A program made the translations under genes and the position numbers. This document shows, piece after piece, positions 3,200 through 30,746 of a DNA stretch of 34,522 nucleotides; position 1 is the stretch's first letter; the number at the start of each line of letters is the position of its first letter. The stretch comes from Patescibacteria group bacterium. Its GTDB lineage: Bacteria > Patescibacteriota > JAHJAL01. The notes beneath the pieces are model-generated. The model saw only the letters and a list, made by a program, of their open reading frames with translations, ran no database searches and was not told where the DNA came from. The DNA lies in NCBI GenBank assembly GCA_036794765.1, contig DAIRGB010000002.1, positions 1 through 34,522 of the forward strand, read 5' to 3'.

Positions 3200-3331
3200 T
3201 GGTGGTAAAAATATTTTGCACTCTTAAAAATTTTACTCATGATAACGCTGTGAATGACGATGGCTAAGAATCTTTTTTGACGCCCGGATCATTTGTAAAA
3301 TTTTTAAGAGTGCAAAATATTTTTACCACCA
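3200..3331 (+). repeat. Hairpin A1: 36-37 bp perfect inverted repeat (3200-3236 / 3295-3331) around a 58-nt loop of family A
   Basis: Arms verified base by base as exact reverse complements. The loop is tcatgataacgctgtgaatgacgatggctaagaatcttttttgacgcccggatcattt. It begins 10 nt after the stop of the VirD4-like gene. Confidence 0.9.
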
Positions 3332-3421
3332 GTTTTGGATTGGATGATTTTTTGTTAGAAGACACTTGCTGCTGGAGTGTCTTTCTTTTTATACTGTAGA
3401 TGTATATTTAATCAAAGGAAT

Positions 3422-3859: not shown

Positions 3860-3960
3860 GCAAACTTGAATTATGTGAATTTAATATTTTTTAAACTAGA
3901 TGTTGGGATTGATGAGTTTGTAACAGTAAAAAATATTAAATTCACATAATTCAAGTTTGC
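3860..3960 (+). repeat. Hairpin B1: 33 bp perfect inverted repeat (3860-3892 / 3928-3960) around a 35-nt loop of family B
   Basis: Arms verified as exact reverse complements. The loop is aaactagatgttgggattgatgagtttgtaacagt. It begins 19 nt after the stop of the membrane-protein gene. Confidence 0.9.
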
Positions 3961-3986
3961 TACTCAAGTATTTTTGCAGTGTTCTT

Positions 3987-4102
3987 AAATTTTCAATTTA
4001 TAATTTTCAATCAATTTAAAATTACTCAATGTTTCAATGTTTGTAAGTTGAAAATTGGCTTATTAAAAATTGATTGAAAATTAGAAATTATAAATTAAAA
4101 TT
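3987..4102 (+). repeat. Element D1: imperfect inverted repeat built from AT-rich heptads (aattttN / Naaaatt), with a loop containing aaattggctta
   Basis: A 17-bp perfect core (4001-4017 / 4067-4083) has outer heptads paired across a 6-nt bulge. It ends 8 nt before the pheS ATG. Confidence 0.6.
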
Positions 4103-5177: not shown

Positions 5178-5304
5178 GTTTGTGTAAAATTTTTTGGTAT
5201 TTAATATTTTGCTCATGATAACGCTGCGAAGGACGATGTCTAAGAACCTTTTTGACGCTCGGATCATTCGCAAAATATTAAATACCAAAAAATTTTACAC
5301 AAAC
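5178..5304 (+). repeat. Hairpin A2: 35 bp perfect inverted repeat (5178-5212 / 5270-5304) around a 57-nt loop of family A
   Basis: Arms verified as exact reverse complements. The loop is tcatgataacgctgcgaaggacgatgtctaagaacctttttgacgctcggatcattc, differing from the A1 loop by 6 substitutions and 1 indel. The arms are unrelated to the A1 arms. Confidence 0.9.
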
Positions 5305-7811: not shown

Positions 7812-7840
7812 AAATAATCCGGTAACGGGTTATTTTTTTG
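7812..7840 (+). terminator. Intrinsic terminator of pheT
   Basis: aaataatccg-GTAA-cgggttattt stem (one U-G pair, GNRA-type tetraloop) running into a T-run. Confidence 0.7.
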
Positions 7841-9157: not shown

Positions 9158-9186
9158 GACCTGGAGAAATCCGGGTCATTTTTTTT
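9158..9186 (+). terminator. Intrinsic terminator of the metalloprotease gene
   Basis: gacctgg-agaaat-ccgggtc stem (one U-G pair) followed by a then T8. Confidence 0.7.
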
Positions 9187-9202: not shown

Positions 9203-9208
9203 TTGACA
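9203..9208 (+). promoter_or_regulatory. Possible -35 box TTGACA for the asnS leader transcript
   Basis: Exact TTGACA about 30 nt upstream of the mini-ORF ATG. I could not find a good -10 at canonical spacing. Confidence 0.2.
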
Positions 9209-9238
9209 ATTATTATTAATATTTGTTAGTCTTTAAGT

Positions 9239-9289
9239 ATGAAAACTCAACGAAACAATAATTTTGATGCTAATAATAACTGGGCCTAA
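9239..9289 (+). CDS. Candidate Asn-rich leader peptide MKTQRNNNFDANNNWA (16 codons, 6 Asn) upstream of asnS
   Basis: ATG...TAA mini-ORF read directly from the sequence. There are two runs of three Asn codons. It is followed by overlapping alternative helices and an intrinsic terminator. No clear SD. Confidence 0.3.
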   Translation: MKTQRNNNFDANNNWA

Positions 9290-9328
9290 GGTTGCTGGGT
9301 AAATTGTTGTTTTCTAAAAAAATATTTT

Positions 9329-9355
9329 ACCGGGCGACTTTAGCTCGGTTTTTTT
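9329..9355 (+). terminator. Intrinsic terminator / putative attenuator in the asnS leader
   Basis: accgggc-gacttta-gctcggt stem (7 bp, one G-U) followed by a T-run. It lies downstream of a separate terminator for the preceding gene, so it is not needed for that gene. Confidence 0.55.
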
Positions 9356-9385
9356 GTGACAATTGGAAATTTGTTGGTTGTGGTT

Positions 9386-9491
9386 GGATTTTAATTTGAT
9401 GCAATTATTTTTAACTTTTTAAACAAGAGGTTGGGACCAATAAGAGCTTAACTGTAAAGAAGTTAAAAATAATTGCATCAAATTAAAATCC
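9386..9491 (+). repeat. Hairpin B2: 35 bp inverted repeat (9386-9420 / 9457-9491, one T:G pair) around a family-B loop
   Basis: The loop is aaacaagaggttgggaccaataagagcttaactgt(a). The only non-Watson-Crick pair is t9418:g9459. Confidence 0.9.
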
Positions 9492-9510
9492 TTTAGTAGG
9501 TATTGAGGCC

Positions 9511-9615
9511 GGATTCCAATTGAATATTATTTATTTAACTTTTTTAAACGAAATGTTGGGACCAATAAGAGCTTAACGGTAAAGAAGTTAAATAAATAAT
9601 ATTCAATTGGAATCC
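9511..9615 (+). repeat. Hairpin B3: 35 bp inverted repeat (9511-9545 / 9581-9615, one T:G pair) around a family-B loop, in tandem with B2
   Basis: The loop is aaacgaaatgttgggaccaataagagcttaacggt, with 4/35 differences from B2. The T:G pair (t9542:g9584) is at the position equivalent to that in B2. Confidence 0.9.
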
Positions 9616-9683
9616 TTTACTTGATCATAGATAATTTAATTTAAAAATAATTGGTAAGATAAAATTTTTATGGGGAGAAAAAA

Positions 9684-10976
9684 ATGGAGTATGCTTTGAC
9701 GAAAGATTTGAAGGATTATTTGGATCGAGAGGTGACGATGAAAGGGTGGGTATATAATTTTCGTTCCAGTGGCAAGATTATGTTTTTGCAGTTTCGGGAT
9801 GGTTATGGGTTTGTTCAGGTGGTGGCGAGTGAGGATGAGGTGGGGGCGGAAATTTGGCAAAAATTGGGAGAATTAGCTTTGGAAACTTCGATTGAGCTTA
9901 CGGGACGGGTGAGCAAACACCCAAGGAAAGAGGAATATGAAGTTCAGTTGGTGAGTTTGAAGATAGTGGGGACGAGTGTGGATTATCCGATTGGAAAAAA
10001 AGAACACGGGCCGGATTTTTTGCTGTCCAATCGACATTTGTGGCTGCGTAGTCAAAAACAGTGGGCGATTATGCGGATTAGGAATGTGGTGATCAACGCC
10101 ATTTATGAGTATTTGAATGAGCAGAATTTTATCAAAATAGATGCGCCGGTTTTGACGCCCAATGCTTGTGAGGGGACGACAACTTTGTTTGAATTGGATT
10201 ATTTTGATCAGGGGAAAGCTTATTTGACTCAGTCGGGGCAACTGTATATTGAGGCGGCGATTTTTAGTGTTGGGAGGTGTTTTGATTTTGGGCCGGTGTT
10301 TCGGGCGGAAAAAAGTAAGACCCGACGGCATTTGACGGAATTTTGGATGATGGATGCGGAGGCGGCTTATGTGGAACATACGGAAAGTATGAAAATTCAG
10401 GAAGGGAATGTGCGGCATATTATTCGTCGGGTATTGGAAAAGTGTCAGGTGGAGTTGGTAATTTTGGAGCGAGATATTGAAGCTTTGAAAAAAGCGGATA
10501 ATGATTTCAAAATTATGTCGTATGAAGAGGCGATTGCTTATTTGCAAGCCAATGGCTCGGATATTCAATATGGCGAGGATTTGGGGGCGGATGATGAGAC
10601 GATTTTGACTGCCAAAAGTGAGGTGCCGATTTTTGTTGATCGTTGGCCCAAAGATATCAAAGCGTTTTATATGAAAATCAATCCGGAAAATCCAAAATTG
10701 GTTTTGAACAATGATTTGATTGCGCCTGAGGGGTATGGTGAGGTAATCGGTGGTTCACAAAGGGAAGATAATTATGATTTGTTGTTGGAGCGAATGAAAG
10801 AAGAAAAACTTCCTTTGGATGATTATCAATGGTATTTGGATTTGCGGAAATATGGTAGTGTACCGCATAGTGGTTATGGAATTGGTTTGGAAAGAATGGT
10901 AGCTTGGATGTGCGGGGTGAAACATATTCGGGAGACTATTCCCTTTCCTCGCCTGATTTCGCGAATTTATCCTTAA
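9684..10976 (+). CDS. asnS: Asparagine--tRNA ligase
   Basis: 430 aa. N-terminal OB fold and class IIb core with FRAEKSKTRRHLTEFWMMDAE and GYGIGLERM. RBS ggggag lies upstream. Confidence 0.9.
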   Translation: MEYALTKDLKDYLDREVTMKGWVYNFRSSGKIMFLQFRDGYGFVQVVASEDEVGAEIWQKLGELALETSIELTGRVSKHPRKEEYEVQLVSLKIVGTSVDYPIGKKEHGPDFLLSNRHLWLRSQKQWAIMRIRNVVINAIYEYLNEQNFIKIDAPVLTPNACEGTTTLFELDYFDQGKAYLTQSGQLYIEAAIFSVGRCFDFGPVFRAEKSKTRRHLTEFWMMDAEAAYVEHTESMKIQEGNVRHIIRRVLEKCQVELVILERDIEALKKADNDFKIMSYEEAIAYLQANGSDIQYGEDLGADDETILTAKSEVPIFVDRWPKDIKAFYMKINPENPKLVLNNDLIAPEGYGEVIGGSQREDNYDLLLERMKEEKLPLDDYQWYLDLRKYGSVPHSGYGIGLERMVAWMCGVKHIRETIPFPRLISRIYP

Positions 10977-11000: not shown

Positions 11001-11639
11001 ATGCTGGAAAAATGGGAGATAAGGGAGGGAAAAAAAGAATTGGAGGAGAACGAAAAGGCAAGGATACGGCTAGATAAGGCCAAGGCGATCGAGATTGTGC
11101 ATGGTGTAAAATTAAGGTTGTTTGGCGATTGCCATGATCGAGTTTGTCGGGGGCGTTATGATTTGACGGATGATTTTTTTAGTCGAAAAAATGGTGCGGC
11201 CAGTTTTTCTAAAAATTGTTTTACAGTTGATCCTGCGGCTAGGGGTCCAAAGAGAGTAAATCCGATTTTTGATGGACGTTTGTGTTGGCAAGAGTTGAAA
11301 TATCGGATTGAGGGAGAAGATAGTCATGGAATGAGAATTGAAGGGCAATTTTGGAAAGTAAAGCAGCTGCGGGAAAAGATATTGCAGTATATTGGATGGA
11401 AATCGGAAAAAATCAGGGAAATACATCCGGATATTTTTTATTCAGTGATATTGAATTATGGTAATTTGACAGAGGCTTTTCGGGATATTGGACAAAAATA
11501 CAAGATAAAATGGACCAATTATGATGAGATAATCGAAAAATTGGTGGCGGCGAATTTGTCGGATTATTTTATTGGTTGGATTACGGGTTCGTGTATAGGA
11601 AAAATCGAACGGCGGAAGAAGAGCAAAAAAACAACCTGA
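11001..11639 (+). CDS. Hypothetical protein (no domain recognised)
   Basis: 212-aa ORF co-directional with asnS, 24 nt downstream, ending in a terminator. No motif I can name. Confidence 0.5.
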   Translation: MLEKWEIREGKKELEENEKARIRLDKAKAIEIVHGVKLRLFGDCHDRVCRGRYDLTDDFFSRKNGAASFSKNCFTVDPAARGPKRVNPIFDGRLCWQELKYRIEGEDSHGMRIEGQFWKVKQLREKILQYIGWKSEKIREIHPDIFYSVILNYGNLTEAFRDIGQKYKIKWTNYDEIIEKLVAANLSDYFIGWITGSCIGKIERRKKSKKTT

Positions 11640-24602: not shown

Positions 24603-24628
24603 AAATAGATATAGGTGAGGGATTTATT

Positions 24629-26521
24629 TTATTTTTTAAGAATAATTACTTCTTCTCCTTGTTTTAGACCATTGATAATTTCGGTTAGGCTGTTGCCGCG
24701 TAGGCCGATTTCGACTGGTTTGGTTGCTGTTGTATTTGTTTTTTGATCTTGTATAAATTCGATGACATTTTGTCCATTTTCTTTTTTGATTGATTGATTG
24801 GGTACGGCCAAAGCATTTTCTTTTTCAGCGGTAATAATTTCAATATTGGCGGTCATACCCGGTTTTATTTTTTCATCCTGACTTTCCAAGATTACTTTGG
24901 TTTTGTAATATACAACGCCTTGAATGATAGTGGCGGCGGGGTCGATTTTGACAACTGTACCATCATATTGTTTGTCTTTGGAAAAGGCATCAAAGTCGAT
25001 TAGGGTTTTATCACCGATTTTTATTTTGTCGATATCGGTTTCGGCGATGTCGGCATTGATTTCGAATTTAGCATTGGATTGGAGTTGGATGGCGGGATTG
25101 GCAGAGGTGCTTTGTTCTCCCAGACTAACATTGATTTGGGTAATTGTTCCATCGATAGGGGCGACGATTTGAAGATTGGAAAGTTGTGCTTCTATAACTT
25201 TACTGGCAGCAGTAGCTTGGGCGACTTGGGCCTGGGCGACAGCAATGGCAGCGGCGGTAGGACCGGCTTTTTTTAGTTTGAGTTGTTCTTGTTGAGTTTT
25301 TAGTTGATCTTCAGCGTTTTTAACTTGTTCTTGAGAGTTGTTTAGTTTGGTTTCGTTACCAATTTTGGTAGTAACAATATTTTCTTCAGCAGTTTTGGTT
25401 TGATTTTCTTATGATATGACTTGGTTTTTGGCGTTGTCGATAGAGGTCTGATTACTCATTTTGGTGTTCTCGATGGCATTGGAAAGATTTTGGGCACTGG
25501 TCAGATTGGAATTGGTAGTAGCTTCATTGCTGGATTGCCGACTTTTGAGAGTGGCCAAATCGGAAGCGGAAAAGAAATATTTGGCATTTTCGGAGTATAA
25601 AAAGAAATTGGTATTGTTTAGAATTTGACTGACAGTATTGATGTAGGCGATGGTGTCGTCGGTGGCTTTTTGGGTGTCGATTTCCGTTTTGGTGGTTTTA
25701 GCAAGATTATAGCTAGATAACGCGGTTTGATACTTGAATTTGGAGTCTGAAAGCAAATTATCACAGTTGGCAGTGCGGATAAAATCAATATTTTTGAAAA
25801 TGTTGTACCAGGTGTTGTTGTCAAATATTTCCTCGATATTGGCCTGGGCTGACAATTCGCTGATGAGAATAATATTGATTTGGTTTAGATTGCTGTCGAT
25901 AGTGTTAATCAGATTTTGTGATGTTTGGTTATTGATATTGGTAAGATTGGTGCGTGATTCGTTGAGTAGTTTTTGAATATTATTTAGATTAGTTTGGGCT
26001 TGTTGGTTGCTATTTTCGATTTCCTTTTTGGTTAATTCGTGATTATTTTTAGCGTTATCAAGAGTATTTTTGGCGTTTTGCACGTTCACTTCTTGAATTG
26101 AAATTTCTTCGGGGCGGTTACCTTCTTGAACTTGCTTGAGTTGAGCTTGAGCAACGGCGATGGAAGCGCGAGATTGGTTTAGTTGGCTGGTTATTTCATT
26201 TGACTCCAAACTAGCCAGAACCGTACCTTTTTTCACAGAATCACCAACTTTGACGTCAATGTTTTCTACGTTACCGGCACCTTTGAAGTTTAAGTTTAAT
26301 TCGTCAGCTGGTTTGATGGTGCCTGTTACTTCTACGCTTTGGCGAATATTTTGAATCTTCGCTGCTTCGGTAATGTAAGGTGATTCTTGAGGTTTGGAAT
26401 ATTGCCAATAGCCGATACCGATAACGGCTATTACTATGATGATTATGAGCCAGAGCCACCACCAGGATTTTTTCCTGGGTTTGAGAAAGTCGTTTGCTTG
26501 ATTATTTTGATCTTGAGCCAT
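24629..26521 (-). pseudogene. HlyD/MacA-family membrane-fusion adaptor interrupted by one in-frame TAA (25409-25411)
   Basis: My manual minus-strand translation shows the same frame continuing straight through the TAA. Upstream are the TM helix, lipoyl half 1 and a long coiled coil. Downstream are more coiled coil, lipoyl half 2 (IVAPIDGTITQINVSLGE), the beta-barrel and the membrane-proximal domain. There is no start codon or RBS just after the stop. Confidence 0.8.
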
Positions 26522-29636: not shown

Positions 29637-29760
29637 ATTTTTTTATTACAATAAATATTTTTTTGCCATTTTTTAGACTCGGACAATATCTTTATGGAAG
29701 AGACTATTGAACTTAAACAAGTAAAAAATGGCAAAAAAATATTTATTGTAATAAAAAAAT
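29637..29760 (+). repeat. Hairpin E: 37-38 bp perfect inverted repeat (29638-29674 / 29723-29759) around a 48-nt loop
   Basis: Arms verified as exact reverse complements. The loop is agactcggacaatatctttatggaagagactattgaacttaaacaagt. It lies in the divergent intergenic region upstream of yebC. Confidence 0.9.
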
Positions 29761-30580: not shown

Positions 30581-30585
30581 GGGTT

Positions 30586-30700
30586 ATTTCAAGTCCGAGG
30601 ATAAATTTTATATTTTTTAAACTTGATCAAAGGTTAGAACCAATTATTTTTGATCTTCGGGACAGGTAAAAAATATAAAATTTATCCTCGGATTTGAAAT
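30586..30700 (+). repeat. Hairpin C: 33 bp inverted repeat (30586-30618 / 30668-30700, one G:T pair) around a 49-nt B-related loop
   Basis: The loop is aaacttgatcaaaggttagaaccaattatttttgatcttcgggacaggt, with an internal 7-bp helix gatcaaa/tttgatc. The only mismatch is g30593:t30693. It begins 6 nt after the yebC stop. Confidence 0.9.
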
Positions 30701-30746
30701 AGAGTTGGAAAGAGGGAGAAGAAAATAATATAGGGTAAAGGGATAT

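Follow-up and report, generated by a model that had tools for sequence, protein, structure and literature searches.

Two long hairpins, B2 and B3, stand in tandem upstream of asnS on a 34.5-kb stretch of DNA from a member of the Patescibacteria (contig DAIRGB010000002.1; we call the whole stretch the window). We propose that a palindromic repeat, dispersed and restricted to its lineage, is present in this chromosome of the candidate phyla radiation (CPR), and that B2 and B3 are two copies of it in tandem. The two arms of these hairpins probably stay paired by arm-to-arm templating at the DNA level (quasipalindrome template switching), and not by separate selection on each base pair.

B2 spans 9386-9491 and has a 35-bp stem, while B3 spans 9511-9615 and has a 36-bp stem. 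When we re-examined the window, these coordinates, the 19-nt spacing, and the location in the 5' region of asnS were as described in the initial annotation, which was made from the sequence alone. The 260-nt region that contains the pair (9371-9630) has a folding energy of -101 kcal/mol (z = -11.2), and none of 200 shuffled sequences folded as well or better.

We compared B2 to B3 in a structure-aware way, left arm with left arm and reverse-complemented right arm with right arm. Four substitutions (TT>CC and TG>GA) and two indels, of 3 nt (GCA) and 2 nt (TA), separate the left arms. The identical differences appear between the right arms once these are reverse-complemented, so all four events are mirrored. 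The arms were said to differ at a third of their positions, including indels; the indels are there, but the actual share is about a quarter. The loops differ at just 4 positions, as reported, and they share an identical 23-nt core (GTTGGGACCAATAAGAGCTTAAC; the chance expectation is 0).

The compensation between the arms had been described as complete. This is correct for the two dinucleotide changes and the two indels, but not for the T-run next to the loop, which is one T shorter in B2 than in B3 while the partner A-run has the same length. This single unmirrored 1-nt difference leaves an A·A mismatch or a bulge at the loop end. The T·G wobble that was thought to be the sole imperfect pair does occur in both B2 and B3.

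The tandem pair is real and not an assembly artefact, because an independent assembly (L016; ENA ERZ724101) carries the same B2-B3 arrangement, base for base. This disposes of the concern, raised with the original description, that the two units might be an assembly duplication. Five de Bruijn contigs from Logan end exactly within the right arm of B3, as expected of a genuine inverted repeat. Short-read de Bruijn contigs of this lineage begin or end inside hairpin arms: L015 and L017-L020 at their position 1 (which corresponds to 9586 in the window), L001 at both ends, and L014 at its 3' end.

Mirrored changes are not limited to B2 and B3. In Betzabe_MAG180 (L009/L045, with ~92% nucleotide identity to the window), the orthologue of another of the window's hairpins, D, has GGA>AAG and TA>AT in its left arm, and both of these changes are mirrored in the right arm. 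Also, the G·T pair of the window's D is an A:T pair in L009. Among the arm differences of B2/B3 and of the D orthologues, every mirrored one is either an indel or a cluster of several changed nucleotides. An exact second copy of a 3-nt indel is not what independent point compensation would be expected to yield.

The pairing itself is close to perfect. In twelve hairpins from the window and its relatives, with 401 base pairs in total, we found 11 non-Watson-Crick positions, some of them at the ends of stems, so that ~97% of the pairs are Watson-Crick. Read on the sense strand, the residual mismatches include five A·C and three G·U, and since two of the G·U are at the same ancestral site, there are two independent G·U. 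A tolerance for wobble pairs at the RNA level would predict the opposite. These mirrored changes and indels, the near-perfect complementarity, and the lack of a strand preference among the mismatches are the signature of template switching. The initial annotation had left open whether the helix is selected or one arm templates the other. We favor templating because of the mirrored multi-nucleotide changes and indels, the Watson-Crick purity, and the lack of a G·U excess over A·C.

Alternatively, the hairpins might be cis-acting structured RNAs on the sense transcript, such as an RNase III or mRNA-stabilizing site or a binding site for a loop-specific protein, in which case the compensation would reflect selection on the RNA helix. 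We view this as possible but rather unlikely. Stepwise selection would have difficulty producing mirrored dinucleotide changes and mirrored 3-nt and 2-nt indels, and the Watson-Crick purity goes far beyond what a stable helix needs. Among the window's own hairpins, there are three G·T mismatches, and all three are G·U on the sense strand, as an RNA element would have it; it is across the relatives that A·C outnumbers G·U. Similarly, all copies are sense and lie within or beside transcription units, and the hairpin A1 is flanked by a stop codon and a canonical terminator, yet copies come and go among close relatives. Also in favor of an RNA element is the loop of D, which is conserved over deep divergence, with only purine-to-purine variation opposite a U-run and with a C(UUCG)G motif. 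In contrast, the predicted helices within the loops are weak. The helix of the D loop is invariant and hence uninformative, and the internal helix predicted for the B loop (GUUGGG/CUUAAC) is not kept in B1 or in the B-like hairpin of L014 and shows no covariation. Searches of Rfam with the whole window gave no hits at the gathering score; by E-value, the only matches were sub-threshold ones to plant microRNA-precursor models, which are generic hairpins and matched on both strands. In any case, an RNA element is compatible with templating at the DNA level, and the two are not mutually exclusive.

Several observations weigh against templating, or at least limit it, and we hold it to be probable and no more. 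The copying process is read from few events, and the near-identical strains have no hairpin differences and so offer no one-arm variants. All of the ~9 oriented loci are sense, which would also fit an RNA-level role, though this is confounded with the leading strand near oriC. RNA structure is weakly hinted at by the GTTRGRA motif of the D loop, where the purine-for-purine variation preserves pairing to a U-run, and by the C(UUCG)G within the D core. In the orthologue of hairpin C from L009, the pattern is reversed, with 0/39 changes in the arms and 4/46 changes in the loop; therefore, neutrality of the arms is not universal. And no mobilizing enzyme was identified in the 34.5-kb window.

Given templating, we picture the process as follows. 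The arm sequence would be near neutral and would turn over quickly. A change in one arm would be copied into the other by intrastrand template switching at the quasipalindrome, during replication or repair, and selection may additionally purge unpaired variants. We infer that template switching is the copying mechanism and that B2 and B3 arose by tandem duplication. Template switching is known to create and maintain perfect hairpins, and one event is enough (PMC8794818). Symmetric indels that preserve inverted repeats have been recorded elsewhere (PMC13155455).

Hairpin families in the window and its relatives

Seven inverted repeats with stems of 30 bp or longer occur in the window, or about one per 5 kb; their loops measure 32-58 nt, and all seven are intergenic. 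No such repeat arose in 100 dinucleotide-preserving shuffles. The coordinates of the hairpins, and the parts of B2 and B3, are given in the table.

Table. Hairpins of the window and the parts of the B2-B3 pair. Positions are those of the window.
Feature	Positions	Strand	Remarks
A1 hairpin	3200-3331	+	37-bp perfect stem, 58-nt loop; between stop codon and canonical terminator
B1 hairpin	3860-3960	+	34-bp perfect stem; between 154-aa gene and pheS; family B
A2 hairpin	5178-5304	+	pheS-pheT spacer
B2 5' flank, box TTGTGGtt	9378-9385	+	TTGNG enrichment; flank accompanies the arm in the B2-like copy of L001 (L001y)
B2 left arm	9386-9420	+	35 nt
B2 loop	9421-9456	+	~36 nt; core GTTGGGACCAATAAGAGCTTAAC at 9430-9452
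B2 right arm	9457-9491	+	97% complementary to left arm; one T·G
B2-B3 spacer	9492-9510	+	19 nt; B3 5' box TTGAGG at 9503-9508
B3 left arm	9511-9546	+	36 nt
B3 loop	9547-9579	+	33 nt; core GTTGGGACCAATAAGAGCTTAAC at 9555-9577
B3 right arm	9580-9615	+	36 nt; outer ~22-30 nt persist in relative L002
C hairpin	29637-29760	+	39-bp perfect stem; upstream of yebC; loop alignable to those of B and D
D hairpin	30585-30701	+	between yebC and ruvC; core GGTTAGAACCAAT; B/C/D superfamily

The loops of B, C, and D can be aligned at their centers and form a single superfamily, with the consensus TTTTTTA-AAC...GGTTGGGA...G-TAAAAAA and an additional internal segment in the D loop. The anchored core motif occurs four times in the window, as compared to 0.11 expected occurrences. 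The two members of family A (A1 and A2) have perfect stems of 35-37 bp and the same architecture, but they share a different loop of 58 nt: TCATGATAACGCTG.GAA.GACGATG.CTAAGAA...GACGC.CGGATCATT. Only the centers are shared: B1, B2, D, C, A1, and A2 each have outer arms that bear no relation to those of the others. A loop consensus for family B had been proposed from B1, B2, and B3. It fits these three hairpins but fails in the relatives: one hairpin of L001 (L001x) has TTGAAGAT instead, and the B-like hairpin of L014 (L014h) lacks GTTGGGA.

The 5' side of the hairpins also has a conserved feature. Of 14 hairpins, 9 have a TTGNG box no more than 15 nt 5' of the stem, while this box is found in 9% of background 15-mers. 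In L001, a B2-like left arm lies downstream of asnS at a contig end, which is a non-orthologous site. The 5' flank is there as well (arm and flank have 88% identity across 42 nt), so the flank moves along with the arm.

Adjacent to B1, and directly upstream of pheS, there is also an imperfect A+T-rich inverted repeat (3985-4099) whose 49-nt arms are 80% complementary. The matching site in L014 has a different hairpin, of 22 bp.

To describe how the hairpins vary, we group the related sequences by lineage. Sequences from the same strain (L010, L011, and L015-L020, including L016) are at least 99.9% identical to the window and have 0 differences in any hairpin. In L009, besides the changes in the arms described above, the D loop matches the B core exactly, with GTTGGGA in place of the window's GTTAGAA. 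L009 also has a second, partial copy of D in tandem (D'), with the loop and the right arm but without the left arm.

The lineage from SRR21359064 (L001, L014, and L077) has ~80% identity to the window. It was suggested that the upstream regions of orthologous asnS genes be compared. L001 has a single hairpin there, in which the outer 7 bp are the same and the remaining arm has ~60% identity, but this hairpin also has two uncompensated transitions. L014 has a B-like hairpin between dnaN and recF as well as an orthologue of A2, while A1 and B1 are absent from their orthologous sites in L014, and C is absent from L077. The D orthologue of L077 has a conserved core and wholly different arms.

A third lineage (L002, L003, and L078-L080; ~84% identity) shows replacement. 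In L002 and L003, the asnS leader (described below) is retained, while a gene for a 202-aa protein has taken the place of B2 and most of B3, and the outer part of B3's right arm remains. A1 and B1 are also absent from the orthologous sites in L078. In the pheS-pheT spacer of L078-L080, a D-type hairpin and a truncated tandem copy of it stand where the window has A2, so across three lineages this spacer holds an A-type hairpin twice and a D-type hairpin once. The arms of the window's D align with those of the D-type hairpin from L078 with a score of 35.5, which is above shuffled sequences but no better than the 33.5 for generic similarity to B2. Finally, in L081, whose YebC is 81% identical, the D core is still found between yebC and ruvC with a weaker stem, and C is absent.

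We considered whether palindrome extension, in which the local flank is copied in inverted form, gave rise to the arms. The apparent solo left arm of L001 and the solo right arm of L002 are better read as remnants of deletion or replacement, and the alignment of L001 is ambiguous because CAATTG is self-complementary.

Tandem full or partial copies recur: there is B2/B3 in the window, D' in L009, the truncated copy in L078, and, at 18317-18533 of L081, a tandem from another hairpin family with a full copy followed by a loop and right arm. These recurrent duplications fit replication trouble at the hairpins. At three of these sites (L009 10734-10964, L081 18317-18533, and L078 4774-4940), a full hairpin is followed after 25-35 nt by a second, incomplete copy, which is either just the loop and right arm or else a truncated left arm with half of the loop. 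In such tandems, two right arms would be available as alternative partners for one left arm. These arrangements may be by-products of replication slippage, or they may be a true device for alternative pairing.

Outside of these relatives, we found little. The B-loop pattern with fixed spacing had no matches in 185,579 species-representative genomes or in metagenome contigs from JGI. A looser pattern for the B and D loops had 53 hits in genomes; one of these is real (Betzabe_MAG180), and the others lack the context of a hairpin. In viral records, the B/D pattern had three matches, all by chance, with no real match in IMG/VR, and the family-A loop pattern had no match in IMG/VR or in the JGI metagenome contigs. 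The hairpin arms had no exact matches in IMG/VR, as might be seen if they were spacers or guides, and the B2-B3 region had no blastn match to phages or plasmids. These searches suggest that the hairpin family is confined to a small clade.

The loop core appears to be under purifying selection, because it is kept at yebC-ruvC in four lineages (with orthologues in L009, L077, and L081) while the arms were replaced. Specifically, two blocks of the D loop (AAACTTGATCAAAGGTT and TGATCTTCGGGACA) show identity or near-identity at this locus in all four lineages, down to 81% identity of YebC, in contrast to arms and a surrounding spacer that cannot be aligned. This persistence argues for a function, or else for repeated re-homogenization from other copies.

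Putting these observations together, each element consists of a short G/T-rich 5' box (TTGYG), an arm of 34-44 bp, a conserved loop that is specific to the family, and the arm's reverse complement, for a total length of 101-132 nt. The elements reside in intergenic spacers inside or beside transcription units, in the sense orientation, and they are gained, lost, tandemly duplicated, or truncated among close relatives. All of the copies that could be oriented (~9 independent loci, including relatives) are sense to the neighboring genes. These loci are all near the origin and probably on the leading strand, so orientation relative to transcription is inseparable from orientation relative to replication.

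The loop core is presumably a recognition site for a protein or an RNase, and the site would be a putative apical module on a long stem, recognized either as a DNA hairpin or cruciform (extruded DNA) or as a transcribed hairpin. More speculatively, the hairpins might represent a previously undescribed class from the CPR, in which an apical module of ~30-60 nt sits on a long, freely evolving, self-correcting stem and is recognized by a dedicated protein. That protein might be a mobilizing enzyme that is specific for the hairpin loop, or a factor that binds or processes RNA and thereby sets up a post-transcriptional regulon, and the elements might have been overlooked because short-read assemblies break at them. 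We offer this joint proposal tentatively and would not bet on it.

These hairpins are a natural case of long arms that diverge at roughly neutral speed and yet remain exact complements, via mirrored multi-base changes and indels. This is the predicted signature of stem maintenance by template switching, and it bears on how far "compensatory" covariation proves selection at the RNA level. They also form an abundant, unannotated class of repeats in a lineage of Patescibacteria, with an unusual polarity: the loop is conserved and the arms vary. Since the hairpins systematically fragment short-read metagenome assemblies, reconstructions of CPR genomes may be biased, and these elements are probably under-represented in public metagenome-assembled genomes. 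If the loop is a true recognition site, then it points to a novel hairpin-specific protein in very small genomes.

The asnS leader and the neighboring genes

Homologs of AsnS, YebC, and PheS place the window in the Patescibacteria (CPR), near Falkowbacteria and Magasanikbacteria. The window's genes include recF, dciA, a TraG-like ATPase, pheS, pheT, asnS, pentose-phosphate genes, ABC/MacB genes, yebC, and ruvC. It is ordinary chromosome near the origin region, with synteny to dnaA-dnaN in L004 and L014. The open reading frame (ORF) downstream of B2 and B3 (9684-10976) encodes a class II tRNA synthetase of the Asp/Lys/Asn type (tRNA-synt_2 in Pfam), and its homologs are annotated as asparagine--tRNA ligase.

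The hairpins were implied to be linked to asnS. If they were an asnS-specific riboregulator (for instance, acting as attenuator, T-box-like sensor, or translational operator), this would explain why the pair lies in the 5' region of asnS, 3' of the leader's terminator and 68 nt before the start codon. But hairpins of the same superfamily adjoin unrelated genes (pheS, yebC/ruvC, and dnaN/recF), and the pair does not overlap the ribosome-binding site. Furthermore, among relatives whose AsnS proteins are 91% identical, L001 has one hairpin and L002 and L003 have none, and all three keep a separate leader with an Asn-rich ORF and a terminator. Because these relatives do without the hairpins, B2 and B3 are not needed for the regulation of asnS, and we give the riboregulator almost no credence.

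Instead, the leader at 9203-9356 is a candidate for a ribosome-mediated attenuator of asnS. It has a TTGACA at 9203-9208, an ORF at 9239-9289, a terminator at 9329-9349, and a T-run that extends to 9356. The ORF (MKTQRNNNFDANNNWA) has 16 codons, of which six are Asn codons. The stretch of Asn codons pairs with a downstream segment, AAATTGTTGTTTT, and the U-tailed terminator is next. L001 (MEKRRNNNLNGDNNWA) and L002 (MKTQGNNNLNNGNNNWA) have kept this ORF together with its pairing and the terminator, and across the lineages the ORF has 16-17 codons with 6-7 Asn codons. In the literature that we searched, we did not find a description of a leader-peptide attenuator for asnS.

There is also a match to a sigma-70-like promoter, TTGGAA-17-GATAAT, at 9607-9635, which overlaps the outer end of B3's right arm. 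The TTGGAA is in the part of the B3 arm that is kept upstream of asnS in L001 and L002. This may be a proximal promoter for asnS.

Two other observations concern the surrounding genes. First, a gene for a membrane-fusion protein (RND-MFP-like) is a single ORF of 630 aa in L011 (1143-3035) and in L009 (4684-6576), while in the window (24603-26521) and in L010 it is split into a 370-aa ORF and fragments. L011 has just 11 substitutions relative to the window and no gaps, and nine of the 11 are clustered at 25409-26089. The split may be a strain-level pseudogenization or a local assembly error. Second, in L004, whose AsnS is 80% identical, there is an apparent tRNA gene at 11492-11594, which is flanked by 22-nt inverted repeats with three mismatches (read by eye). 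It looks like the putative tRNA would occupy the "loop" of a long leader-trailer stem.

Comparison to known elements

We compared the hairpins to known classes of elements, beginning with transcription terminators. Intrinsic terminators have short G+C-rich stems and a U-tract, while these hairpins have A+T-rich stems of 34-44 bp followed by at most 3 T. Canonical G+C-rich terminators with U-tails are present separately, at 9158-9177, 9329-9349, 7812-7835, and 3358-3384; therefore, the long hairpins are not this organism's terminators. The attC sites of integrons have conserved R''/R' core sites (RYYYAAC...GTTRRRY) where the hairpin begins and ends, a variable center, and extrahelical bases, while here the conservation is central rather than basal and the stems lack bulges.

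[quoted passage not shown] Like these elements, they are small, non-coding, intergenic, palindromic, and multi-copy (seven copies in 34.5 kb), and their presence is polymorphic (in L001, L002, L014, L077, L078, and L081); the B2-like copy at a second site in L001 and the short 5' tag, which is reminiscent of the GTAG tag of REPs (PMC3733652), are also suggestive. However, the outer ends of the arms, where a transposase should bind, are unrelated between the copies, so there are no conserved terminal inverted repeats. There is no sign of target-site duplications either: flanks of the same copy have a mean similarity score of 11.4, as compared to 11.2 across copies (standard deviation 4.0). No transposase gene was found in the 34.5-kb window, and no RAYT (Y1 HUH) gene was found among its ORFs. 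We consider such an origin to be quite unlikely. REPs and BIMEs with RAYT (PMC3733652) do resemble these hairpins in being oriented extragenic palindromes with a short 5' tag, in high copy and in pairs or clusters. But REPs are palindromes of 20-40 nt with a GTAG/CGTC tag and a stem that is conserved across the family, while these elements are three to five times larger (101-132 nt) and have the TTGYG box.

The hairpins could also be tigRNA units of a TIGR-Tas system, which uses RNA guides with variable palindromic stems and is common in the CPR. In TIGR arrays from Patescibacteria, the stems diverge within the array and conservation lies beside the loop motifs (PMC12045711; bioRxiv 10.64898/2026.09.09.750476), so the free variation of the stems, the conservation near the loop, and the tandem arrangement of B2 and B3 are all reminiscent of TIGR. 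A TIGR loop should have two intervals of box C (3 nt), a 9-nt spacer, and box D (2 nt), at most 15 nt apart. We searched both strands with a regular expression (box C as CCA, CGA, CTA, CAA, or CTT; box D as TG or CG; spacers of 8-10 nt). Across the 12 hairpins, there was no consistent unit of box C, spacer, and box D on either strand, and no loop had the dual arrangement except for sporadic chance matches. Moreover, the loops are conserved where spacers ought to vary, the units are single or paired and dispersed instead of forming a multi-unit array, and the CUU motif at the stem's base is restricted to B2, B3, and L001x. There is no adjacent tas gene, and no Nop/Tas-like protein was found in the window, using Pfam and a search of unannotated ORFs against sequences from PDB. 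Membership in TIGR is thus largely refuted, and we consider it to be extremely improbable.

As for RNA elements, iron-responsive elements and lambda boxB are multi-copy cis-acting hairpins with a conserved apex and a stem that is free to vary if it remains paired. This resembles what we see, but they have short stems (5-10 bp) in which wobbles and bulges are tolerated, while the stems here are 34-44 bp and almost perfectly Watson-Crick.

The evolution of the arms resembles quasipalindrome correction (the Ripley model; Mönttinen & Löytynoja 2022, PMC8794818), in which an imperfect repeat is made perfect in a single event. The expected mirrored multi-base substitutions or indels, and the long perfect stems, match B2 versus B3 and the window's D versus the D of L009. 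But quasipalindrome correction is a mutational process, and it does not account for the conserved loops or for the dispersed families.

Overall, these hairpins are dispersed palindromic repeats, which are known in kind, although we found no membership in Rfam, TIGR, classical MITEs, or REPs. The nearest in kind are the repeats of the ERIC/Correia type. ERIC/IRU in enterobacteria, Correia/NEMIS in Neisseria, and RUP/BOX in pneumococcus are non-coding elements of ~100-150 bp that form long hairpins and lie in intergenic regions within transcription units. Their presence varies between strains, and some are substrates of RNase III or RNase E and affect the stability of mRNAs. In these repeats, conservation extends over the whole element, arms or terminal repeats included, and target duplications are made by Correia elements. 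In the hairpins described here, no target duplication was seen and the polarity of conservation is inverted: the loop and the base pairs next to it are all that is conserved, and each copy has arms of its own.

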